A stretch of 64,000 nucleotides of DNA, taken from positions 1 through 64,000 of the forward strand of contig JBGSMV010000018.1 of assembly GCA_041739995.1 (NCBI GenBank). The letters run 5' to 3'. Positions within the stretch are counted from its first letter, which is position 1. The number at the start of each line of letters is the position of its first letter. The notes beneath the pieces were generated by a model. It saw nothing but the letters and a program-made list of their open reading frames with translations, was not told the origin of the DNA and did no database searches. This document shows, piece by piece, positions 35,683-48,667 of the stretch. Made by a program: the position numbers and the translations under genes. The stretch is from Bdellovibrionota bacterium (GTDB lineage: Bacteria > Bdellovibrionota_C > UBA2361 > JBGSMV01).

Positions 35683-35959
35683 TAATCTGACTTATACGGT
35701 TGGTTGCAGAGCTATTTTTCCTAAATCACCGAAGGCCCACGCCGCAGTGCGCGCCGCTTTCGTTCTGCTCGGACGCACTTGCCTTAAGAGGCCGCAGAGT
35801 AGCGGAGCGCCAATTTCCTGACACTACCGTCAATATCACTCTACTGGAGCAAAGGGTAACTAGCTGAAAATACGTAAATTCATGGCGGCAATCGCTGCGC
35901 ACGGCGCTTGCAATGCAAAGGGCTCTGGGAGAACGACTCGAACTAAGAAGGAGCTGCTT

Positions 35960-36367
35960 GTGAGCCTGATTGACCGCATCTTCGATAAGACCTTTACGGG
36001 GCTGCAGCGCACCATGGATCTTACGTGGCGCCGCAACGAGGTAATCACCAGTAACATTACTAACGCTGAGACTCCGCAGTACCGCGCCGCTGATTTCTCC
36101 TTTGCGGGAGAACTGGATCGCGCCTTCGGTGATTCGACAGAGGCGCTCAAGCGAACAAGCTCCAAACATCTTGATACCACCTCTTCCTCTAGTGCCCATA
36201 TCACACCCGATCTTTCCGGTGCAACGAAGGCGGACGGAAACAATGTCGACATAGAAATCCAAATGGGCCAGATGGCGAGCAATTCTGGAAAGTTTTCAGT
36301 CGCCGCTGACCTCTATCGGCGCAAACTAAGCCACATGAAGATGGCCATAAGAGAAGCAGGGAGGTAA
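35960..36367 (+). CDS. flgB: Flagellar basal-body rod protein FlgB
   Basis: SNITNAETPQYRA, DGNNVDIE; GTG at 35960 after AAGGAG. Confidence 0.93.
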   Translation: MSLIDRIFDKTFTGLQRTMDLTWRRNEVITSNITNAETPQYRAADFSFAGELDRAFGDSTEALKRTSSKHLDTTSSSSAHITPDLSGATKADGNNVDIEIQMGQMASNSGKFSVAADLYRRKLSHMKMAIREAGR

Positions 36368-36374
36368 CTAGGGT

Positions 36375-36803
36375 ATGCCGGGTTCACTTGAAGTACTTGC
36401 TCGATCCCTTAGCGTCCAGCGTCTTCGTGTAGACGTGATTGCGTCCAATATCGCCAATGCCGAGACCACCCGAACGCCCGAGGGGGGTCCGTATCGGCGC
36501 CGTGACATCCTGCAGGTAGCAAATGAGTATCGTCCAGACTTTGCATCTGCCCTTGATCGCATGACCCTCGCCGTCCCTAAGGTTCAGGCGGTACTCGAAG
36601 ACCAAGAAGAGCCACGCTTAGTTTATCAACCAGGCCACCCCGACGCGAACCAAGAGGGGTACGTATCGTATCCAAATATCAATGTGGTGACCTCAATGAC
36701 AGATCTTATGACGGCAAGTCGTCTGTATCAGGCAAATATTGTTGCGGTCGAGAACGTGCGAAACATGGCGCGGGACGCAAGGTCGCTCGCACAGTCGGCA
36801 TAA
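36375..36803 (+). CDS. flgC: Flagellar basal-body rod protein FlgC
   Basis: SNIANAETTRTPEGGPYRR, YQPGHPDA, GYVSYPNIN. Confidence 0.96.
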   Translation: MPGSLEVLARSLSVQRLRVDVIASNIANAETTRTPEGGPYRRRDILQVANEYRPDFASALDRMTLAVPKVQAVLEDQEEPRLVYQPGHPDANQEGYVSYPNINVVTSMTDLMTASRLYQANIVAVENVRNMARDARSLAQSA

Positions 36804-36861
36804 AGCAGCGGTGAAACAGCGCCAATAAGGCACAAGTCAAAGAGTCTAGGGAGAAGTAGAT

Positions 36862-37188
36862 ATGAGCATAGAAGGAATTAAGTCAGGCCTCGCGAAATAC
36901 GCACAGATTGAAAGAATTACTAACCCAGCTCCCGTGGTGCCTGGCAAAACCGAGAGCGGAGGTGGGCCTAGCTTTAGTCAGATGCTGGGGAATTCTCTGC
37001 AGGAAGTGAACTCATTGCAGCATCAGGCGGATGGGAAGATCAAAGATCTCGTACTAAACCGCGATGAAACCACTACGCATGAAGCAATGATTGCTCTCGA
37101 GCAAGCAGACGTTGCCTTCCAGCTGATGAACAACATTCGATCGAAGATCGTTCGTGCTTACGAAGAGGTGATGCGAACTCAGGTGTAA
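36862..37188 (+). CDS. fliE: Flagellar hook-basal body protein FliE
   Basis: SFSQML, HEAMIA, IRSKIVRAYEEVMRTQV. Confidence 0.95.
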   Translation: MSIEGIKSGLAKYAQIERITNPAPVVPGKTESGGGPSFSQMLGNSLQEVNSLQHQADGKIKDLVLNRDETTTHEAMIALEQADVAFQLMNNIRSKIVRAYEEVMRTQV

Positions 37189-37223
37189 GCGAGCGGTAAT
37201 CAACGGCGTTAAAGGAGAGTGCG

Positions 37224-38879
37224 GTGGCAAGTTCATTCGATCCGAGTGCGGTATTGGGACAGCTGACAGAAAGCTTCATGAAGCTTCCCCTGCTTCAGAA
37301 GATAATGTTTCCCTTGCTGATTGTGGGGGCGGTCAGTGGAATCGTTTGGGTGGCAAATTGGGCCAATCGCCCTGACTACGTAGTACTATTCTCGGACCTT
37401 AAGCCTACCGATTCAGCCGCCGTGGTAGGAAAGCTCAAGGATAGAAAAATCGCATACCAAGTTAGAGGCGATGGGACCTCGATTGCCATCTCTCCACCAG
37501 AAATTGTGCATGAGCTTCGCATCGAGCTCGCCGGTGAGGGCGTTCCGCAGGGCGGAGTAGTGGGCCTTGAAATTTTTGAAAATACCAATCTAGGAACCAC
37601 CACATTCCAAGAAAAAATTAAACTTCAGCGTGCGATTCAAGGGGAACTCGAACGCACCATTGGCGCGCTTGAAGCCGTTCACTCGGCGCGCGTGCATTTG
37701 GCGCAGCCTGAAAAGAGCGTCTTTGCAAAGAAGGGCAGCGAGCCAACAGCTTCCGTTATGCTGCAATTGGAAGCGGGTGCTGAGCTGACCAAGCAGCAAA
37801 TAAAGGGAATCACCAATCTCGTTGCGGGGAGTGTCGAGGGCCTTAATGTTAAAAATGTGACGTTGATCGATGTTCGAGGAAATTTGCTCTCGGTTGACGA
37901 GGAAAATGAAGACTCGTTGACCATGGAGGCAACTCGACTGCAGTATCAGCGCGAGGTCGAGAAGGGGTTTGCGCAAAGAATTGAGCAAATGCTCATGATG
38001 GTACTCGGACCGAATCGTGTCATTGCCCGAGTATCAGCAGACTTAGACTTCTCAGCGACCGAACGTGAGGAGGAGAGTTTTGATCCAGGCGGGCAGGTAA
38101 TTCGCTCTGAGCGCACCGTTGAAGAAGGTGCGGGCACACAGCAACGAGGTGGAATTCCAGGGGTTGTTTCAAATCTTGCAAGTGATCCAGATTTGCTTTC
38201 AGCCCCCGGTACGGGGAAACAGGAGTCTCAGCGTAGGGAAGCCGTAAAGAATTTTGAAGTTTCAAGAGCGATTAGCAAAGTATCATCCCCTCGTGGGCAG
38301 CTTACTAGGCTTTCAGTAGCCGTTCTGGTGGATGGCATTTACGACAAACAACCTGTTCCGACCGATGGAAGTCGCGCCGCTGACCCTATATTCAAGCCGC
38401 TTGATCCAGAAATGATCGCCCGAATCGAGTCCCTGGTGCGTAGCGCGGTCGGGTTTGATGCATCCCGCGGGGATACCGTTACGGTCGAGAACATCGCGTT
38501 CCACGCCCCGACCGAAGATTTCACCGAGATGATGTCGGGTAAGGCCACTCAAGATTTGATCTTCAATGTGCTGTATCGAGCTGGACCGTTGGTATTTATT
38601 CTTCTGTTCTTCCTCGTGATCGTAAGACCGTTGGTGAAGTTCCTGGTAACCCCAACAGAAGCAGAGGTGGATCTGACGCGCCTGCTTCCGACTGGTATTC
38701 AAGACTTGGAGAAAGAGCTTGAGTCGGAGCGCACACGAGCCTCGGTACCAACCTACGAGCCTTCAGTGGACATAGAGCAACTTGAGCAGATGATGGCTGA
38801 GAACTCACGTATCGTGAAAGAGAACCCACAGCAAGCTGCACTCCTGATTCGATACTGGCTCAATGACGGGAGGTTATAG
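37224..38879 (+). CDS. fliF: Flagellar MS-ring protein FliF
   Basis: GLEIFE, RAIQGELERTI, ARVHLA, PTASV, RLSVAVLVDG, GFDASRGDTV; two TMs. Confidence 0.97.
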   Translation: MASSFDPSAVLGQLTESFMKLPLLQKIMFPLLIVGAVSGIVWVANWANRPDYVVLFSDLKPTDSAAVVGKLKDRKIAYQVRGDGTSIAISPPEIVHELRIELAGEGVPQGGVVGLEIFENTNLGTTTFQEKIKLQRAIQGELERTIGALEAVHSARVHLAQPEKSVFAKKGSEPTASVMLQLEAGAELTKQQIKGITNLVAGSVEGLNVKNVTLIDVRGNLLSVDEENEDSLTMEATRLQYQREVEKGFAQRIEQMLMMVLGPNRVIARVSADLDFSATEREEESFDPGGQVIRSERTVEEGAGTQQRGGIPGVVSNLASDPDLLSAPGTGKQESQRREAVKNFEVSRAISKVSSPRGQLTRLSVAVLVDGIYDKQPVPTDGSRAADPIFKPLDPEMIARIESLVRSAVGFDASRGDTVTVENIAFHAPTEDFTEMMSGKATQDLIFNVLYRAGPLVFILLFFLVIVRPLVKFLVTPTEAEVDLTRLLPTGIQDLEKELESERTRASVPTYEPSVDIEQLEQMMAENSRIVKENPQQAALLIRYWLNDGRL

Positions 38880-39697
38880 TGGCGTTGGACACTGAGCAGG
38901 TCGAAGATTCTACCAACCGATCTCAAGCTGACTTCGAAAGCTCTCCATGGGCGGACTCGTCATGGGAGATTGTAGGCGAGGTACCGAAGGGAGAGGAGTT
39001 CTTTCCTATGAAGCTTGCCCCAGTTCCTGGCACCGAAGCTGTTGCGGACCCGATGTTCGCCGACTTTGGGGGAAGAGCCGAGGTTCATGCGGGCGACCGC
39101 TGGCATTTGCCCGAGCATCTAGGAGGAGAGCAGCGAGTAAGAGAAGGCCGAGCGAATGCCCAAGAGGAAGCAGGGAAGGCGCAAGTTGCTGAGTTTGAGC
39201 GTCAAAAAGCCGAGGCCTTTGAGCAAGGGCAGGTTCACGGCAGAGTGGAAGCTGAAGCGGCACAGGCGGAAAAACTTGAAGTGATCAACGCAAGTCTTCA
39301 GACTTTGGTACAGGACATGAAGACGCAGTTGGCGGAGGCGATGTTGCATATTAGCAAGCGCGCAAGTCAGCTGGCAGTGGAGATTTCCAAGAAGATCATA
39401 GATTCCGCGGTCGAGATCAATCCTGAGTATATTGCCAACATCGTGCAGCAGGCCTTGCCGCTTGCAGGCGGCGCAGGGATTAGAAAGGTGCGTGTAAGTC
39501 CACAGGACATGGAGTTTATCGAAGTGGTTGGTGTGCATAGAGTCTTCAAGGACTTTGACGAGTCGTGGGCATTCGAAGCTGACCCAACTATTAGAGCGGG
39601 CTGCATAGTTGAAACATCGGCAGGTGAGATTGATTTTGACCTCGACCACGCCTTTGATCGCCTGAAAGAAAAGATTGTCACTGTTTCAAAGAGCTAG
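38879..39697 (+). CDS. fliH: Flagellar export protein FliH
   Basis: AFEQGQVHG GxxxG-type repeat, VRVSPQD, DPTIRAGCIVETSAGEID. Confidence 0.88.
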   Translation: MALDTEQVEDSTNRSQADFESSPWADSSWEIVGEVPKGEEFFPMKLAPVPGTEAVADPMFADFGGRAEVHAGDRWHLPEHLGGEQRVREGRANAQEEAGKAQVAEFERQKAEAFEQGQVHGRVEAEAAQAEKLEVINASLQTLVQDMKTQLAEAMLHISKRASQLAVEISKKIIDSAVEINPEYIANIVQQALPLAGGAGIRKVRVSPQDMEFIEVVGVHRVFKDFDESWAFEADPTIRAGCIVETSAGEIDFDLDHAFDRLKEKIVTVSKS

Positions 39698-39716
39698 AAC
39701 TGGAAGAGCTTCCCAT

Positions 39717-41063
39717 ATGAATATTGCGGCAGGGGTAGATGAAGTTTTTGATCGCGCGAGTGCTGCCGTAAACCTTGGCAGCCGCTATATGCTGCGAGGT
39801 ACCGTGACTGATGTAACGGGACTTGTGATCGAAGGAACTGGCCCCTTCGTTCCCGTAGGATCAAATGTTTCTATACGATCCGGGGCGCTAAAGATGTCGG
39901 CTCAGGTGGTCGGATTTCGAAGTGACCGGGTACTACTAATGCCCTTCGGTGAAATTCAGGGGATTGCCCCTGGGGCACAGATTCTTGCCGGTGGAGCAAG
40001 CGCTGAGGTGTTGGTTTCCGAGCGTCTTTTAGGGCGCGTGATAGATGCGATGGGCAATCCGCTCGACGGGATGCCATTAGATTCTCAAGGTACGCTTGTG
40101 CCTCTATATCGAGCGCCTCCGAATCCTATTACTCGAGCGCGTATTTCTGAGTGTTTTGATCTCGGAGTGCGCGCAATGAATTCGATGCTCACCGTGGGCG
40201 TCGGCCAGCGCGTGGGGATCATGGCCGGCTCTGGCGTTGGCAAATCGACCTTGTTGGGCATGATCGCAAAGCACTCGGTCAGTGATATTAACGTGATCGC
40301 GCTGGTGGGTGAACGAGGTCGCGAGGTAAGAGAGTTTATTGAAAGAGATCTCGGACCTGAAGGTCTCGCACGCTCGATCGTGATTGTGGCAACCGGCAAC
40401 GAGTCCGCACTCCTTCGTATTCGAGCTGCCTTTTTAGCGACCTCGATTGCTGAGTACTTTCGCGATGCAGGACGACGCGTGGTGTTGATGCTCGATTCAA
40501 TCACCCGCCTTGCCATGGCTCAAAGAGAAATTGGGCTCGCGATCGGGGAACCGCCAAGTACGCGTGGATACACGCCTTCAGTGTTTGCGATGCTCCCTCG
40601 TTTGCTTGAGCGCGCAGGAACTTCAGAAGGAGAGGGCTCGATCACTGGGCTTTATACGGTGCTGGTAGAGGGCGATGACATGAATGAGCCAATCGCGGAT
40701 GCCACCCGAGGAATTCTTGATGGGCACGTGGTGCTCAGTCGCCGTCTTGCCGGAAAGGGCCATTTCCCTGCAATTGAAGTACTCGAAAGCGTGTCTCGCG
40801 TGATGAGTGAAGTGGTTCCAGATGAGGTGGTCGACTGTGCCGCTGAGGCCCGAGACATTATCGCCACTTACCGTGAAGCTGAAGATTTGATCACCATTGG
40901 CGCTTATAAGCCGGGACAAAATCTTCGAGTGGACAAAGCAGTCCGATTGATAGAGCCACTGACGGCATTTCTCAAGCAGCGTTCAACGGAGAGTACCTCG
41001 ATGGCGGATAGTTGGCAGCAGCTTTCCGATATTGTGAATGCGGTCCCTGGTGGTGAAGCTTAA
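39717..41063 (+). CDS. fliI: Flagellar export ATPase FliI (ORF open from 39675)
   Basis: GSGVGKSTLLGM, GERGREVREF, DSITR, GEPP, DGHVVLSR. Confidence 0.97.
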   Translation: MNIAAGVDEVFDRASAAVNLGSRYMLRGTVTDVTGLVIEGTGPFVPVGSNVSIRSGALKMSAQVVGFRSDRVLLMPFGEIQGIAPGAQILAGGASAEVLVSERLLGRVIDAMGNPLDGMPLDSQGTLVPLYRAPPNPITRARISECFDLGVRAMNSMLTVGVGQRVGIMAGSGVGKSTLLGMIAKHSVSDINVIALVGERGREVREFIERDLGPEGLARSIVIVATGNESALLRIRAAFLATSIAEYFRDAGRRVVLMLDSITRLAMAQREIGLAIGEPPSTRGYTPSVFAMLPRLLERAGTSEGEGSITGLYTVLVEGDDMNEPIADATRGILDGHVVLSRRLAGKGHFPAIEVLESVSRVMSEVVPDEVVDCAAEARDIIATYREAEDLITIGAYKPGQNLRVDKAVRLIEPLTAFLKQRSTESTSMADSWQQLSDIVNAVPGGEA

Positions 41064-41569
41064 TGAAGAAATTCAAATTTCGCCTGGAGCGAGTGCTGCA
41101 GTTTCGAATGGCGCTCAAGGATGAGCGCAAGAGAGACCTTCTGGATGCGAATCAGCGCCTGCGCGACGCCGAACAGGTGCAGGAGCAACTCAATGGGGAG
41201 CTTGCTCGCCATGGTCTGGAGAGTGGAGAGGTTTTGTTACTTGGAGAGCTTGAGCTGAGGGGGGTCTACCGAGAGCGGACCAAGCTCGCATTGGAGGCCC
41301 AAGGCGAGGCAGTGGCTATGCGCCAGGTCGACGTGGCGGCGGCACTGGAGAGCTATATTGAGGCCGCTAAGGACGCCAACGCACTGGAAGCGCTTAAGAA
41401 AAGGCGACTCCAAGAGTTCCAAGAGCGCATCCAAAAGCTTGAGGAAACCGCTCTCGATGAAATAGCGGTGCAGCGTGCCGGACGAAAGCTAGTCCTCGCA
41501 CGTCGAGTCAAGCAGCAGCAGGGCGAAGTGGAAGTCAAGGAAGCTGATGGCGGCGCTTTGGACTCCTGA
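41063..41569 (+). CDS. fliJ: Flagellar export chaperone FliJ
   Basis: MKKFKFRLERVL, coiled coil, LDE; follows fliI. Confidence 0.9.
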   Translation: MKKFKFRLERVLQFRMALKDERKRDLLDANQRLRDAEQVQEQLNGELARHGLESGEVLLLGELELRGVYRERTKLALEAQGEAVAMRQVDVAAALESYIEAAKDANALEALKKRRLQEFQERIQKLEETALDEIAVQRAGRKLVLARRVKQQQGEVEVKEADGGALDS

Positions 41570-41651
41570 AGTAGGCGACGTAGTGAAGTTTCAAGGCAGA
41601 AAGTAAATAGGCATCCTCGAACATTGGCTCAAGGATTGGAGGCAGACAGAG

Positions 41652-42503
41652 ATGGACAGCGCAAAGAAAAAACAAAGCATTTCTAGAGAGCAGGCCGGGG
41701 CTATCTATGATGATCTTCAGCAGACCATGAGCTCTTTGATAAAGAAGCATGGCGGCAAATTGCCTCCTGTTTCGAAGGCTGAAAAGAAATCTCAACGCGT
41801 TGCTGCTCCTCGCGGATCCGCACCAGTAGAGCCTAAGTCCGCTGACAAGAGAGTCATTCCTGAAGAGCATCCAGGATTGCCATTGATGCTTCCCACAAAA
41901 ACCAATCGTGGCCATGTCGTAGCGCTCGGTTTGTTGGTGACCTTCGCGACTTTAAAGGTAATGTTCGCAGTTCTTGAAGCTTCGGGAGTTTTTGGAGTGT
42001 CAGCAGCGCAAGCGTCGATTGGGTTCGATGCAGCGGGCGCGACGAGTACCGGCATGCGAGTCCCATTCAGTGAGCCGCGTACTCCTACACAACCTTTTTC
42101 ACGTGAGGAGCTCTCCGTGCTTACCTCGCTTGACCATAGACGTTCTGAATTGGAGGAGCGCTCTCAGCGTCTCGACCAGCGCGAAGCGGATCTTCAGCTC
42201 CGAGATCGTGAGTACCTTGCTCGTCAAACACAGCTTAAGGAGTTAACCGATAAGCTCCAGGCGGAACGCGGCAAGAATGATAAGAAGAGAAACGGCCAGA
42301 TTGATCAGCTTGCCAACGTGTATGGCTCCATGAATCCACCTGAAGCAGCGACGCTGATTGAGCAACTTGACGTGCAGATTGCGCTTGAACTGCTTGAAAG
42401 AATGCCTGAGAAGCGAATTGGGCAAATTCTCTCACTCATGAACAGAGAGCGAGCGCTTACTATTACGCGCATGTTGAGTGGAAAGGGCGAGCGAACGCAC
42501 TAG
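41652..42503 (+). CDS. MotE/FlbB-like (MgtE N-terminal-like) flagellar protein
   Basis: TM, coiled coil, LANVYGSMNPPEAA..L..M...IGQILSLM. Confidence 0.8.
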   Translation: MDSAKKKQSISREQAGAIYDDLQQTMSSLIKKHGGKLPPVSKAEKKSQRVAAPRGSAPVEPKSADKRVIPEEHPGLPLMLPTKTNRGHVVALGLLVTFATLKVMFAVLEASGVFGVSAAQASIGFDAAGATSTGMRVPFSEPRTPTQPFSREELSVLTSLDHRRSELEERSQRLDQREADLQLRDREYLARQTQLKELTDKLQAERGKNDKKRNGQIDQLANVYGSMNPPEAATLIEQLDVQIALELLERMPEKRIGQILSLMNRERALTITRMLSGKGERTH

Positions 42504-43526: not shown

Positions 43527-43967
43527 ATGCAGCGTTTTCAGGGTAGTTTTTTTGAGGAGAGTGCTATGCCAGCGCATCAAGAGTCGAGTTGTATCCCACC
43601 ATTAGCCGCTGCCAGAACTTCAGGAGAAGTACCGGCGGCGTTAGGTTCCGCTGGTCTACAGGATCTTTCAGCCTTACAGGGTGCCGGTTCACAGAGTGCC
43701 GGTGGTATGTCTCAGGTGGAGTTGGTAACGGCGGTCGTGCGGCGTCTGGCTGAGCAGAATCGGCCCTCTGATCTTACAGTAGTGGAGCAAGTACTTGGGC
43801 TGAATGCAGATGGCTTTAGCTCTATGGCGATAGCAGACCGCACTGACCTACCACCTCGTGAGATAACCGGAATTCTAAGTACCGCCAATTTCTGCTCTCG
43901 TGAGCCTCGACCTGGAAGAATGGAGGGGCGAGTGATTGGATCTCGACCCGGTGCAGAAACCCACTAG
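43527..43967 (+). CDS. Hypothetical protein upstream of the helicase
   Basis: 146-aa ORF; alternative ATG after GAGGAGAG; no recognised motif. Confidence 0.45.
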   Translation: MQRFQGSFFEESAMPAHQESSCIPPLAAARTSGEVPAALGSAGLQDLSALQGAGSQSAGGMSQVELVTAVVRRLAEQNRPSDLTVVEQVLGLNADGFSSMAIADRTDLPPREITGILSTANFCSREPRPGRMEGRVIGSRPGAETH

Positions 43968-44252: not shown

Positions 44253-46280
44253 ATGACTTCGCATAGACAGGATTCAGCAGTTGAGAGGACCATGTTGGCG
44301 GCAGGAAAGCTGTACTGCCCATGGCGAGAAAGCTGGGTTGCTCGGCCAAAAATGGTTGCACCTGAGACGCTCACCATCGCTGATTGGAAGCAGTGCTTTA
44401 ATTTGAAATGCACTCGACCCGATGCCCCGATCTTGCGGGCTTGGCAAGCAAATTTCTTGAGAGATTGGTTCGGCACTTCAGGCTCCTTTGCATTACAGGC
44501 AGACCCTGGTGAAGGGAAAACCAGAGCGGCGCTTCTCGCAGCCGATCATATAATCAGCAGCGGTGGCTGCGCCGTGATTGTGGTGCAAACTAAGGATCAC
44601 CTTCAGCAAATCGATCAGGAAATCCGAAGCCTCTTTACTGCGCCAGATGGCGGGCCGGTGGATCGGATTCTCGCAGTCTTGAGCGGGCGCCAAGGTCCTA
44701 AGGGGCGCCAAAAGATCTATGACGATCCCACTAAACAGTTGATTGTCATAACGGCGGAATGTTGTGCCCGTGATATGGGCTCGACCCCACGAAAGGGGAA
44801 GGAGGAACTCTCAATTCCGCCTCGTTTGAAGCTCACGAGTCGTGATTTGCTTGTTCTCGACGAGGGCGATCTCATGCGTGGGAACGAAGGACTCGCAAGA
44901 ATACATCGCAAATGGAAGTCGATAGATCAGGGTGAGCAAACTACCGGACTAACGGCGAATCGACCAAGGCTACTGATTCAAAGCGCCACACTGACTATCT
45001 CCCACAATCCGGACGAAGAACACGGGGAAGTGCTGGACTATAAAAAGCGGCACGGCGTTGAACGTTTCTTTAACGTTCCCGCTCCTAGTTCCTTGAATTA
45101 CGACATTGCCCAGCCTTCCGTAGGGCGGCTCCCTGAAGGAGTCTGCATCGCAAGTCAAAGCATTCGAAACCAGTTTTGGGAACTGATCGAAGGAATCGAG
45201 TACGCTGAACTAGATGCCAATAACGATTCAGAATCTTCGGTGCAGCGCCGAATTCGTGCCTTGAACAAAGGCCGGGTGAAAGAACCTCAGTACGGTCGCC
45301 TCGGCCTTGATGAAGGAGTTGTGGACACTGGACGCCACGTGCACGTACTTCCCTCAATAAAGACGGTGCTTGGGCTTGTAAGTGCATTGCGTGCCAATAT
45401 TGACGAATTTCCCGAGTGGCCACGAACGCAGGTGCTGCGCAACTGCTTGCGTGATGCCTATCAGGCGTTGACGCTTTATCATTGTAATTCTGTGCTCACC
45501 AATGAACTGCGTGTTTCGTTCTTGGAGTATGCGGGGCAATTGATTCACGAGAGTAAAGTAGGGGATCGCTACCTTCCGCACTTAAGGGCTTTGTTTCCGC
45601 CGGGAGCTCTGCCCCCATGGTGGACTCAAATGGCCAGAGGAACTCCATATGAGAGTCTGCCGGGAAGCAGCGCGAGTTCGTTTTTTGGAAATGAGCGAGA
45701 GCTTGGCAGTGCAGCTCGAGAGCTCATGGACTGCAAAATTCAGGAGCATCCTAATCTGCGCAGCACATTGCAGTGGCTGACCGGAGGTATCCGACAGCGC
45801 AGTCCCGGACAAGCCATGCTGGTGTGTGGTACCGCGATGGAGACCATGTATCTCAGAGATAAGATCGAGAAAGAAACGGGAGAAAGCGGGGTTTCCTTGA
45901 TGGGGCATAGTCATCTGGCCCCCTCCAGACGAAGCGAGAATTTTGGAAAGGCTCATTCTGGCGTGGCGTCCTTAGTGACCGCGACCTCTGTAGCCGAGCG
46001 CGGCGTTGACCTACAGTCCTTGAAGAATCTTTTGATCTTGAATCCCCCCTATGATTTGCGACAAGCAAAGCAGTTGTTGGGTCGAGTTGGTCGCAATCCG
46101 GAAATCCCCGGCTTGGTTTCGTTTATGTACGCCGAAGGTTCCAGCCGAGAAATAATGCTTAGGGCACTCGTAGCTAAATCTGCAAGGTATGGAGACGACT
46201 CTCCTCTCAAGCAACTATTTTTTGAGCGATTGCCGCGTCGCCGTCGCCGAGGCCCTGTAGGGCCGGGACTGTTTGAATGA
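44253..46280 (+). CDS. SF2 helicase, Hef/Mph1/FANCM-like, no ERCC4 nuclease domain (alternative start 44292)
   Basis: LRAWQ (Q), ADPGEGKT (I), VQTKDHLQQ (Ia), LVLDEGD (II), QSAT (III), TATSVAERGVD (V), QLLGRVGR (VI); helical insert between the RecA lobes. Confidence 0.8.
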   Translation: MTSHRQDSAVERTMLAAGKLYCPWRESWVARPKMVAPETLTIADWKQCFNLKCTRPDAPILRAWQANFLRDWFGTSGSFALQADPGEGKTRAALLAADHIISSGGCAVIVVQTKDHLQQIDQEIRSLFTAPDGGPVDRILAVLSGRQGPKGRQKIYDDPTKQLIVITAECCARDMGSTPRKGKEELSIPPRLKLTSRDLLVLDEGDLMRGNEGLARIHRKWKSIDQGEQTTGLTANRPRLLIQSATLTISHNPDEEHGEVLDYKKRHGVERFFNVPAPSSLNYDIAQPSVGRLPEGVCIASQSIRNQFWELIEGIEYAELDANNDSESSVQRRIRALNKGRVKEPQYGRLGLDEGVVDTGRHVHVLPSIKTVLGLVSALRANIDEFPEWPRTQVLRNCLRDAYQALTLYHCNSVLTNELRVSFLEYAGQLIHESKVGDRYLPHLRALFPPGALPPWWTQMARGTPYESLPGSSASSFFGNERELGSAARELMDCKIQEHPNLRSTLQWLTGGIRQRSPGQAMLVCGTAMETMYLRDKIEKETGESGVSLMGHSHLAPSRRSENFGKAHSGVASLVTATSVAERGVDLQSLKNLLILNPPYDLRQAKQLLGRVGRNPEIPGLVSFMYAEGSSREIMLRALVAKSARYGDDSPLKQLFFERLPRRRRRGPVGPGLFE

Positions 46281-48058
46281 GTGGGGCGCTTTTCCGTCAC
46301 ATGACTCATGCGCATGAGCCGGTTCTGCGCCTTCCTCTGGCGCCGAGAACACTCAATGCAGTTGAAAGTAGTCGAGTATTCAGTCTGATGGCGGAAGGAT
46401 TCACTTCCACTCAGGCAGAATTTGCGCAGCGTCGAGGAGTTCCAGATCTCCAACCCTATGTGACCCCAAAAGCACCGTCGTTGAACGAGTTCCTCAAGCT
46501 CCCGGGAGTGCAGGAGTCGCTTGAGCTGATGGCCCAGGCGCGAACTCGCGCTGCGAAGATAGCAATCTGTGGGGACTACGATGTCGACGGAGTCTGTTCA
46601 GTCGCGATAGCACAAGCTGCTTGTCAAGCGCTTGGCCTCGCTACTCATTGCGATACGCCGTGTCGTAGAAACGAAGGCTATGGGCTCAATTTTCGGATGG
46701 TGGAAGGGGCAACGGCCGAAGGCTGTACGGTGCTCTTAGCGCTCGACTTTGGAACTACTCAACACAAAGTCATTCGCTACGCTCAGGAGCAAGGCATGCA
46801 AGTGGTGGTGATTGACCATCACAAATTAGGCGATTTTCCTCTGCCGTCTGCAGAGGCTCTGATTAATCCCAATGCGCGCGGTGATAAGTTCCAAGAATTC
46901 TGCGCTGCCGGGCTGTGCATGATGTGGGCGGCTTCGATACGAAAAGAACTCGGAGTGCCTCTGAACATGGACAAAATCTGCGCCATGAGCGCCTTGGCTA
47001 CCGTTGCGGATGTTATGCCGCTTAGTAAAGAGAGCAACCGTGCAGTGGTACGACACGGACGTGCGCTCGTGACCCAACACGAGGGACTTGCGACTTTGTG
47101 TGAGGTGCTTGGTATCAAAGGGGAAGCCAGCTTTTCTGATCTTGCCTTTCAGATTGGACCAGCGCTAAACGCGCCGGGAAGAATTCGGGCCAGAAACTTT
47201 GATTCTTGTGGACGGTTGGAACGCGGTGCCTTGGAGTCTCAGGATTTACTATTCGGTCATTCTAAAGGATTGACGTCAGAGCAGCTGACGGAGCTTGCCT
47301 CATCAATTAGAAGTGCCAATCAGGATCGTAAGACGCGCGAGCGAATAGACTATCAGCGCGCGCTTAAACTTTTGCGAGGTGGTCCATTGGGTCGGGCAAT
47401 AGTGCTTGCCAGTGATTCGTTTGATCCGGGGCTTGTGGGGCTAGTGGCCTCACGTCTGTCAGAAAATTATGCCCGTCCCGTAGAAGCGATTGTATGGGAT
47501 GGCAAAATCGGAAAAGGCTCGGTGCGCTCTGGTGGCGACCTTAGGGTATATGAAGCCCTTCACCGCTGTAGAGAGCACGAGATGCACTACGGGGGACACG
47601 ACGCGGCGGGAGGAAACAAGTTAAAGCGCGAGCAGTTTGAAGCTTTTGCAAGTGCATTCGCTGCAGAAACCTTTCGTCAGTTGGGACCATTTAAGGCACC
47701 GACCATTCAGACCGATTTTGCGATGTCGCTTGCCGAAGTCGAGCGCGGACTTGAGGGGCTTGCAGACGAGCTCTCGCTGTTTGAGCCTTTTGGAAACGGG
47801 CATCTTGCACCGCGAATTCTGATACCAAACGTAACTATTTCGAGTTTTCTGCCAATCGGGGCGGAGCATTTTCTAGTTAAACTCTCTGAAAAATCTGCTC
47901 GTGGGGAGGCCTACCTGTGGCGAGGTACTGAAAGCCCATTGTTAAAACTGGCGGGTCATAAGGTGACGCTTGCCTGTCGCCTCGGATGGTATCGAGGGCA
48001 GGGGAGCCGAGAGCAGGCTCCCTCCTTGGAGATAGAAGGTGGAGCAAGCGCTCGGTAA
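46277..48058 (+). CDS. recJ: RecJ-type DHH single-stranded DNA exonuclease
   Basis: GDYDVDG, EGYGL, LDFG, IDHH, TVADVMPL, GPALNAPGR, GKGSVRS, GGHDAAGG, FEPFG. Confidence 0.92.
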   Translation: MSGALFRHMTHAHEPVLRLPLAPRTLNAVESSRVFSLMAEGFTSTQAEFAQRRGVPDLQPYVTPKAPSLNEFLKLPGVQESLELMAQARTRAAKIAICGDYDVDGVCSVAIAQAACQALGLATHCDTPCRRNEGYGLNFRMVEGATAEGCTVLLALDFGTTQHKVIRYAQEQGMQVVVIDHHKLGDFPLPSAEALINPNARGDKFQEFCAAGLCMMWAASIRKELGVPLNMDKICAMSALATVADVMPLSKESNRAVVRHGRALVTQHEGLATLCEVLGIKGEASFSDLAFQIGPALNAPGRIRARNFDSCGRLERGALESQDLLFGHSKGLTSEQLTELASSIRSANQDRKTRERIDYQRALKLLRGGPLGRAIVLASDSFDPGLVGLVASRLSENYARPVEAIVWDGKIGKGSVRSGGDLRVYEALHRCREHEMHYGGHDAAGGNKLKREQFEAFASAFAAETFRQLGPFKAPTIQTDFAMSLAEVERGLEGLADELSLFEPFGNGHLAPRILIPNVTISSFLPIGAEHFLVKLSEKSARGEAYLWRGTESPLLKLAGHKVTLACRLGWYRGQGSREQAPSLEIEGGASAR

Positions 48059-48109: not shown

Positions 48110-48667
48110 CTACAGAGATCCGTTACGACCTGAGGGAGCAAACTCAACACAACGGGTTCGAGGCCCCGCAGCGACTCGACTCATCTGAAGGTAGAGACTT
48201 CCGCCCTCGGCTATTCTTCTGGCCTGACGTGCCAAGCGGCGCGCAAAGTGCTGTGGTGCTCTGCCAGTTCCACCGTAGAAACGTGGGCGACCGTTGCCGC
48301 TAAAGTTTGGCAAGTACCTGGCAAGTTCACCCGCCAAAGTCCCGTTTGCAAAGTAAAATGGTAGGGTAGTCCGTCGTAGAGAGGGGCATCGTCGAGCACA
48401 GACCAAGGTATAGCCGGTGGTGCGGCGGTCCAGCGGGTTCGAGAAATGAGCTGAAGCTTCCGATTTAATCAAAAGATCTCCTGGCTCGATCACATCAATT
48501 GTGGCGCACACCGATGAGAGCGGATCTGGAGTTTCTTCCTCCTGAGCCATGGCGGGAGCGGTATGCAGGCTTAGTACGAGGAGGCTCAGTCCGCAGAGGT
48601 GCCAGCCCTGGCACAGTATTCTGGACATGTTGACGGGGACTTGACTAAAGGAGGGAATACTCTTCAT
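48110..48667 (-). CDS. Hypothetical exported protein
   Basis: Signal-peptide-like N-terminus ending AMA; several Cys. Confidence 0.6.
   Translation of the reverse strand: MKSIPSFSQVPVNMSRILCQGWHLCGLSLLVLSLHTAPAMAQEEETPDPLSSVCATIDVIEPGDLLIKSEASAHFSNPLDRRTTGYTLVCARRCPSLRRTTLPFYFANGTLAGELARYLPNFSGNGRPRFYGGTGRAPQHFARRLARQARRIAEGGSLYLQMSRVAAGPRTRCVEFAPSGRNGSL

Follow-up and report, generated by a model that had tools for sequence, protein, structure and literature searches.

A Hef/FANCM-type helicase gene overlapping the gene of a RecJ paralogue in Bdellovibrionota: a candidate undescribed bacterial DNA-processing module

The stretch of DNA analyzed here, 64,000 nucleotides of a Bdellovibrionota bacterium, related to predatory bacteria (contig JBGSMV010000018.1, positions 1 to 64,000 of the forward strand; hereafter the window), carries a gene for a Hef/FANCM-type superfamily 2 (SF2) helicase or translocase, followed directly on the same strand by a gene for a RecJ paralogue (Table 1). 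The assembly to which it belongs (G000) has 3.8 Mb in 81 contigs and is 91% complete. Both open reading frames (ORFs) start with ATG. At the junction, TTT GAA TGA, the TGA of the helicase gene shares four letters, ATGA, with the ATG of the RecJ gene (46277-46279). The helicase ATG is preceded by just 8 sense codons after the prior in-frame stop, giving an open frame of 683 amino acids (aa). Both ORFs and their overlap lie exactly where the initial annotation, made from the sequence alone, had placed them.

Table 1. Positions of the overlapping gene pair, its domains, its neighbours and genes adjoining related pairs (window positions unless a locus, L, is named)
Feature	Position	Strand	Basis
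Hef/FANCM-type SF2 helicase or translocase (P0001), without nuclease domain, 675 aa	44253..46280	+	ORF, Pfam, Protein Data Bank (PDB) profile, fold search
RecA-like lobe 1, residues 77-248; motifs I, II, III	44481..44996	+	Pfam DEAD, orthologue alignments
Inter-lobe insertion, mostly helical, residues ~249-512	44997..45788	+	AlphaFold2 (AF2) model helices spanning residues 295-510, structural alignment lengths, invariant columns
RecA-like lobe 2, residues 513-615; motif VI QLLGRVGR	45789..46097	+	Pfam Helicase_C
Helicase C-terminal tail: basic run RRRRR, then terminal GPGLFE	46215..46277	+	core-family alignments
ATGA stop/start overlap	46277..46280	+	sequence
RecJ paralogue (P0002), 593 aa, predicted single-strand-specific 5'-3' DNA exonuclease	46277..48058	+	Pfam, TIGR00644, catalytic residues, separate clade
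DHH catalytic domain, residues 94-226	46556..46954	+	Pfam PF01368, 62 bits
DHHA1 domain, residues 375-462; GGH motif 439-441	47399..47662	+	Pfam PF02272
RecJ OB-fold domain, residues 493-577	47753..48007	+	Pfam PF17768, 36.3 bits
Flagellar block upstream of the pair	35882-42503	+	read from translations
146-aa ORF upstream of the pair	43527-43967	+
185-aa ORF downstream of the pair	48110-48667	-
~985-aa gene adjoining RecJ	L065:8313-11288	+
~985-aa gene adjoining RecJ	L066:7301-9664	+
~985-aa gene adjoining RecJ	L071:2848-5802	-
Very divergent RecJ-like gene convergent with a Hef-like helicase	L068:9474-11420	-
Very divergent RecJ-like gene convergent with a Hef-like helicase	L069:9742-11682	-

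In the helicase, the Pfam scan found the DEAD (35.5 bits) and Helicase_C (46.2 bits) domains with ~260 residues between them, and detected neither ERCC4 or HhH domains nor the Hef helical-bundle model PF21210; the absence of a C-terminal ERCC4 nuclease had already been pointed out in the initial annotation. The motifs are GEGKT (I, 86-90), DEGD (II, 203-206), SAT (III, 244-246) and QLLGRVGR (VI, 607-614), and the residues G86, G88, K89, T90, D203, E204, S244, A245, Q607, G610, R611, G613 and R614 are invariant in the orthologue alignments. The DEGD that had been noticed in place of DEAH is indeed present in the window helicase, but among the six aligned core members three have DEGD, two DEAH and one DEAD, with D-E alone invariant; DEGD does not characterize the family. 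Outside the motor, the most conserved stretch of the family is found in the inter-lobe insert, at residues 423-491 (FLEYAG...H...FPPG..P.WW..M..TPY...FF..R.LG.AA).

A profile made from the helicase and three orthologues was searched against all solved chains. The best match was Hef of P. furiosus (1wp9, E 3.7e-32) and the second human FANCM (9el5, E 2.6e-19), followed by an ancestral Dicer helicase and RecG (~3e-16), with the remainder weaker. The AF2 model, predicted from a 31-row alignment, has a predicted local distance difference test (pLDDT) score of 87.0 and a predicted template modelling (pTM) score of 0.83. With this model Foldseek placed four Hef chains at the top (E 5.6e-20), then DRH-1, FANCM, LGP2, RIG-I, MDA5 and Dicer helicases. 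VIA-align gave FANCM 9el5 as the best structural match (Z 23.0, root mean square deviation 3.9 Å over 478 residues, 14% identity) and Hef next (Z 21.4 over 464 residues), every other entry having Z <= 20.4. The alignments span 460-490 residues for Hef, FANCM and RIG-I-like chains, against ~355 for two-lobe DEAD-box helicases, and therefore the inserted helical domain belongs to the match. Sequence profile and predicted fold agree in placing the helicase within the Hef/FANCM/RIG-I-like branch of SF2. The Hef/FANCM-like motifs and helical insert recognized in the initial annotation are thus borne out, and an ordinary bacterial SF2 family leads in neither search. Lacking the ERCC4/HhH nuclease, the helicase is not Hef proper; PRK13766 (Hef nuclease) matches it with 27.7 bits, in lobe 2 only, its cut-off being 610. 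Three cluster relatives carry the Joint Genome Institute label 'ERCC4-related helicase', and the window helicase is not among the six matches to TIGR01389 (recQ) in its genome.

The RecJ paralogue has the domains DHH, DHHA1 and RecJ_OB, all present and in this order. Its metal-binding residues D100, D102, D157, D180-H181-H182, D245 and G439-G440-H441 are invariant in comparison with three other RecJs. On TIGR00644 it scores 292-293 bits, below the curated cut-off of 396.9, which marks it as a divergent paralogue and sets it apart from the housekeeping enzyme. The description of this gene as a complete bacterial-type RecJ holds for the three domains and the catalytic residues, but not for the score. 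A search for a second, housekeeping recJ, suggested by the initial annotation, found one on contig C51 of the same genome, with 447.6 bits on TIGR00644, above the cut-off. It has 30% identity with the window RecJ, which by its sequence is an additional paralogue beside housekeeping recJ; a recent duplication of housekeeping recJ was rejected, given this identity and the separate clades described below. Canonical RecQ is also present, on contig C71 (789 bits). A RecJ above the cut-off was found in 12 of 13 checked genomes with a linked RecJ, G120 (76% complete, best match 390 bits) being the exception, and G031 and G034, the genomes with the clearest helicase orthologues, also retain housekeeping recJ above the cut-off. 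Two relatives of the window RecJ have 46-48% identity, after which the scores fall from 506 to 223 bits into ordinary RecJs. One RecJ relative (P0170) and one helicase relative (P0003) both report 86,940 as longest contig, which suggests a further adjacent pair.

The two families could also be read as a system for RNA or RNA-DNA hybrids, in which the motor would act on duplex RNA, R-loops or primers, and RNA or short oligonucleotides would be broken down by the DHH partner. The structural matches (Z 19-20) include RNA helicases of the RIG-I-like, Dicer and DEAD-box types, and archaeal enzymes of the RecJ family such as HAN also degrade RNA, according to the available excerpts of PMC5717133. 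However, the best matches by sequence and by fold are the DNA enzymes Hef and FANCM, and the domain layout of the partner is that of a full bacterial RecJ, RecJ OB included (293 bits on the recJ model), and not that of NrnA-type nanoRNases. We consider this reading very unlikely.

The helicase subfamily is rare. A word-indexed search of 5.8 billion proteins returned one helicase relative (P0003, 52% identity), and a profile search of 1.84 billion cluster representatives returned 17 at E <= 1e-30. Ten of these 17, fragments included, form the subfamily at E <= 1e-57, and the scores then drop from 210 to 163 bits. A pattern scan of a genome collection recovered just the two known Bdellovibrionota metagenome-assembled genomes, plus weak unrelated matches. 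A scan of metagenome contigs with the family alignment gave 10 loci. A single one among them, L025, may be a relative (26% identity, truncated where its contig ends), and the others are unrelated Clostridia-type helicase lobes. Among 41 related genomes, clear orthologues were found in G031 and G034 only. In both, a gene with DHH, DHHA1 and RecJ_OB domains lies directly downstream on the same strand, its frame overlapping that of the helicase in G031 and separated from it by 2 nucleotides in G034. In G121 the C-terminus of the helicase is truncated by a contig end, and RecJ again lies directly downstream, with a frame overlap of 4 nucleotides. Thus all four subfamily genomes (G000, G031, G034 and G121) have a RecJ paralogue immediately downstream on the same strand. 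The genes flanking the core pair differ between these loci.

More distant relatives extend the association to fusions. The next-best helicase relatives among the cluster representatives include proteins of 1226-1378 aa. One standalone relative carries the label SAR324. In a screen of 148 representatives (P0009-P0156 of the best 150 listed), all nine longer than 1200 aa have an N-terminal RecJ module followed by a helicase of this type. The linkage was then followed through a sample of 124 Bdellovibrionota genomes, with 40 loci fetched and their ORFs scanned with hidden Markov models (HMMs) made from our RecJ and helicase alignments. Hef-like matches at E <= 1e-15 are present in 31 of the 124 genomes, and in 28 of the 124, including G000, G031 and G034, the Hef-like helicase is physically linked to a RecJ paralogue. 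These 28 comprise 16 fusions, 4 pairs with RecJ before the helicase, 6 with the helicase before RecJ and 2 convergent pairs, that is, 12 adjacent pairs overall; four further long frames (G095, G040, G114 and G108) were left out of the fusion count. The initial annotation had considered that the adjacency might be peculiar to a single genome; instead it recurs in every subfamily genome and in 28 of 124 across the phylum.

By locus, the 20 regions around helicase matches contained 7 RecJ-helicase fusions, 3 overlapping pairs with RecJ first, 2 convergent neighbours and 8 helicases with no RecJ within the fetched flank. The 20 regions around extra RecJ matches contained 9 fusions, 2 pairs of a non-core helicase followed by RecJ (G021 and G027), one RecJ-then-helicase pair (G118), one core pair (G121), 4 extra RecJs without a nearby helicase and 3 cases of a fragment or sole RecJ. 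All the extra RecJs below the cut-off are found within the window's own order, while 33 genomes of other orders have at most one recJ match each. A set of RecJ paralogues of ~665-686 aa, close to the recJ cut-off (388-426 bits on our HMM), has no helicase within the fetched flank (L138 on G118:C224, L140 on G123:C145 and L153 on G120:C250); therefore not every extra RecJ in the order is helicase-linked.

Two arrangements have features of their own. In G119, G120 and G076, which represent the RecJ-then-helicase subfamily, a divergently oriented gene of ~985 aa adjoins RecJ in all three loci, and a DNA_pol_A_exo1 3'-5' exonuclease domain was found in both products scanned (L065 and L071). Both exonuclease polarities would therefore adjoin one helicase. 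The Hef-like helicase gene of G024 and G035 lies in convergent orientation to a RecJ-like gene of very divergent sequence, whose DHH domain is split by an insert of ~70 residues and which forms the longest branch of the RecJ tree.

One fused relative (G090, 1200 residues) was modelled from a 15-row alignment. Two well-folded modules were obtained (pLDDT 83.6), joined by a linker of low confidence at residues 528-556, and the model resembles tethered modules, not a rigid assembly. Its pTM of 0.54, without confident packing between the modules, would fit the reading that the two genes are neighbours by descent only, co-transcribed and acting independently, for example as a spare RecJ and an unrelated helicase. 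However, 16 fusions and 12 adjacent pairs, in four arrangements and many genera, are hard to explain without a shared function, and we find independent action hardly credible.

Trees were built for RecJ (36 rows, quick IQ-TREE) and for the helicase (48 rows, LG+G4). The five core-linked RecJs form one clade with a Shimodaira-Hasegawa-like approximate likelihood ratio test (SH-aLRT) support of 100. The Bdellovibrionota housekeeping clade is separate (9 of 10 rows, support 100), and the fused and RecJ-then-helicase forms make up further separate clades; deep nodes are weak. In the helicase tree, the core subfamily and the ERCC4-bearing archaeal Hef proteins each form a clade with support 100, and archaeal Hef with ERCC4 comes next after the bacterial relatives. 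The bacterial forms, whether fused, split, convergent or standalone, are interspersed within a single radiation that is poorly resolved and has several long branches. No order of events, fusion or fission, is claimed from these sequence trees.

The two ends of the helicase carry short conserved motifs. All 11 core-family sequences examined, among them 3 fragments retaining the C-terminus, have a run of basic residues and then, at the C-terminus or close to it, [GPT]-x-L-[FW]-[DES]. This tail has low pLDDT in the AF2 model and is probably disordered. Some of the fused and standalone relatives have similar xLF ends, and the partner of the tail is therefore probably not the adjacent RecJ. At the N-terminus, the core family conserves the motif Y-x-P-x-x-E-[SA]-[WF]. 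The terminal GLFE resembles a clamp-binding motif, which gave rise to the idea of a beta clamp partner; for residues 631-675 with two copies of the G000 beta clamp (DnaN), complex prediction, run without controls, gave a score of 0.19 against a mark of 0.32, which speaks neither for nor against the idea.

The pair lies in an ordinary chromosomal setting. The G+C content is flat, 0.51-0.55 over 36-56 kb, with no compositional anomaly. The flagellar block upstream contains flgB/flgC-, fliF-, fliH-, fliI-ATPase- and fliJ-like genes and is followed by an ORF for a membrane protein of 283 aa with an MgtE_N domain (Pfam). The 146-aa and 185-aa ORFs that flank the pair, the latter with a hydrophobic N-terminus, have no Pfam match and are not conserved beside the pair in other genomes. 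Further downstream there are an extracytoplasmic function (ECF)-type sigma factor, with sigma-70 domains in Pfam, and glycosyltransferase-like genes, read from translations only. No tRNA gene was found in the window, and no integrase, transposase or defence neighbours were seen in the window or at the other core loci. Across 23 loci no third gene is common, save the neighbour specific to the RecJ-then-helicase subfamily. A scan for promoters and terminators gave no promoter-like sites and terminator-like sites at chance level. The helicase had no tblastn match in 72,556 plasmid and 50,697 phage records. In PADLOC-DB 2.0 it had weak generic motor-domain matches only (SngC 6.5e-5, PbeA 7.7e-5 and Cas3 types), and the RecJ had none at E <= 0.1.

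This context bears on the main rival explanation, antiphage or anti-plasmid defence, in which the motor would be a sensor or translocase and the RecJ paralogue the nuclease that degrades invading or replicating foreign DNA. The accessory distribution is patchy within one order (28 of 124 genomes) and the pair is absent from a genome of the same genus; the variety of gene arrangements and the long branches would fit rapid evolution; fold relatives of the motor include the innate-immune RIG-I-like receptors; and a helicase with a nuclease is in general a common defence layout. However, the pair has no neighbours of the defence, integrase, transposase or tRNA kind, no conserved third gene, native G+C content, no plasmid or phage match and no more than generic motor hits in the defence database, and nothing in it would obviously give self/non-self discrimination. 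We regard defence as unlikely. The initial annotation had proposed fork processing, resection or defence together, and it is context alone that has narrowed this choice.

The sequences show how the two genes are arranged and translationally coupled, to which families they belong, that the pair is conserved, that relatives have it fused and that its context is chromosomal; to this we add a proposal for function. It is somewhat probable, in our judgement, that the two genes form an accessory chromosomal unit of helicase and 5'-3' exonuclease, for fork processing or resection, beside RecQ and housekeeping RecJ. We infer the substrate, the polarity, the cooperation and the physiological role of the pair from the families of the two proteins. 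FANCM acts on branched DNA. Hef does so too, and bacterial RecJ is a 5'-3' exonuclease on single-stranded DNA, as stated in the available parts of PMC5717133 and, for RecJ, also of PMC4846377; the mechanism is proposed because of these activities. The two genes would be co-expressed and would act on chromosomal DNA. The Hef/FANCM-type motor, with its ATPase motifs intact, would load on branched or gapped duplex DNA. Translocation or unwinding powered by ATP would then expose a single strand with a 5' end at forks, gaps or ends. The RecJ paralogue, in which the metal-binding residues of DHH are intact and an OB domain is present, would in turn degrade the exposed strand 5' to 3'. This would leave a 3' single-stranded region or, where a fork has stalled, a nascent lagging strand that has been trimmed, and RecA-dependent restart or gap repair could follow.

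Several points weigh against a repair unit of this kind. RecQ and housekeeping RecJ are already encoded in the genome, and a repair role would be partly redundant. RIG-I-like RNA sensors are among the closest structural relatives of the motor (Z about 20), and the predicted fold taken alone would also be compatible with a nucleic acid other than DNA. The model of the fused G090 protein, with its low pTM, predicts no fixed interface between helicase and RecJ. The distribution is patchy, since G001, of the same genus, and three genomes of the same family have a single recJ each and no core helicase; an accessory function of another kind, such as defence, would account for this no less well than accessory repair. 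Finally, no LexA-type box was found upstream of the helicase gene, and the window has 8 one-mismatch matches to it against 11 expected by chance.

Hef/FANCM-type motors have been treated as archaeal and eukaryotic fork remodellers, and in textbooks bacterial RecJ is paired with RecQ. Archaeal Hef with HAN is the closest named system to the pair described here, and RecQ-RecJ the closest working analogy in bacteria. The partnership between Hef and a RecJ-like DHH nuclease, which the initial annotation had mentioned, has a precedent in print: HAN of T. kodakarensis, a nuclease of the DHH family, binds Hef, which stimulates its exonuclease, and HAN has DnaJ-type Zn-finger, S1-like and OB domains N-terminal to DHH and 3'-5' polarity (excerpts of PMC5717133 and PMC6158738, respectively). 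As in that system, a motor of the Hef type (1wp9) is teamed with an exonuclease of the DHH superfamily. In contrast to archaeal Hef, the bacterial helicase has no ERCC4/HhH nuclease, its inter-lobe insert is about twice as long and PF21210 is not detected in it. The partner differs as well, with the layout DHH-DHHA1-RecJ_OB and a polarity presumed from sequence to be 5'-3', where HAN has Zn-finger, S1 and OB domains and the opposite polarity (PMC6158738, in part). The bacterial link is genetic, by overlap or fusion, while Hef binds HAN through a disordered region.

With FANCM and Mph1 the helicase shares an SF2 motor with an inserted helical domain. Unlike FANCM, to which its identity is low, this 675-aa bacterial protein has neither long C-terminal partner-binding regions nor a degenerate ERCC4 domain. 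RecQ-RecJ, in the RecF pathway, likewise joins a helicase to the RecJ 5'-3' exonuclease to resect nascent strands or gaps, and is proposed here as a working analogy; however, the window helicase is not RecQ, the window RecJ is an extra paralogue and canonical RecQ lies on another contig. In the model organisms, neither fusion nor translational coupling of RecQ with RecJ is known. AddAB/RecBCD and DinG with an N-terminal 3'-5' exonuclease are also units of motor and nuclease for processing DNA ends or forks, SaDinG being an example of a helicase-nuclease fusion (PMC12345164, in part). Those systems use other helicase superfamilies or clades and other nuclease folds, and none combines a Hef-type motor with a RecJ of the DHH family.

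The lineage may also lack RecG, as far as its genome sequences indicate. Canonical RecG (TIGR00643) was found in 0 of 124 genomes at E <= 1e-130, with 9 candidates scored per genome, and in 0 of the 41 genomes in which all candidates were scored, while 8 bacteria used as a control pass the cut-off. The best match in G000 has 385 bits and lies within a frame of 1212 aa, Mfd-like as judged by its length alone, and the next match in this genome is PriA. A candidate with a weak recG match, L155:1137-3377 (ORF of 746 aa, open frame of 756 aa), proved to be PriA. Such a lack, if real, could bear on why Hef-like motors radiated in this lineage. A bolder and rather doubtful proposal is that one order of Bdellovibrionota evolved a stalled-fork machine convergent with the Hef-HAN and FANCM complexes, in which a Hef-type branch-point translocase, tied for good to a RecJ of its own through fusion or overlap, would be recruited to the replisome or a repair hub by the tail [GP]xL[FW][DE], and would remodel forks where RecG was not found.

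The initial annotation had put the locus forward as a candidate undescribed module, and in the open-access full-text literature, subscription journals not being covered, we found no account of a Hef-like helicase that is linked, or fused, to RecJ in a bacterium. This is a real, conserved and undescribed pair, a variant among helicase-nuclease DNA-processing units, and together with the fusions in relatives it points to an undescribed bacterial DNA-processing machine. The locus represents a bacterial radiation in which Hef-like motors are tied, through gene overlap or fusion, to a RecJ paralogue of their own. Should the pair serve defence, it would be a new system of helicase and nuclease with a RIG-I-like motor as its base. 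If it acts at stalled forks or gaps, it would be the third independent example of a nuclease of the DHH family joined to a Hef-type motor, would offer a compact system of one or two polypeptides in which to study how DNA is handed over from motor to exonuclease, and would bear on fork reversal in a lineage where no RecG was found.

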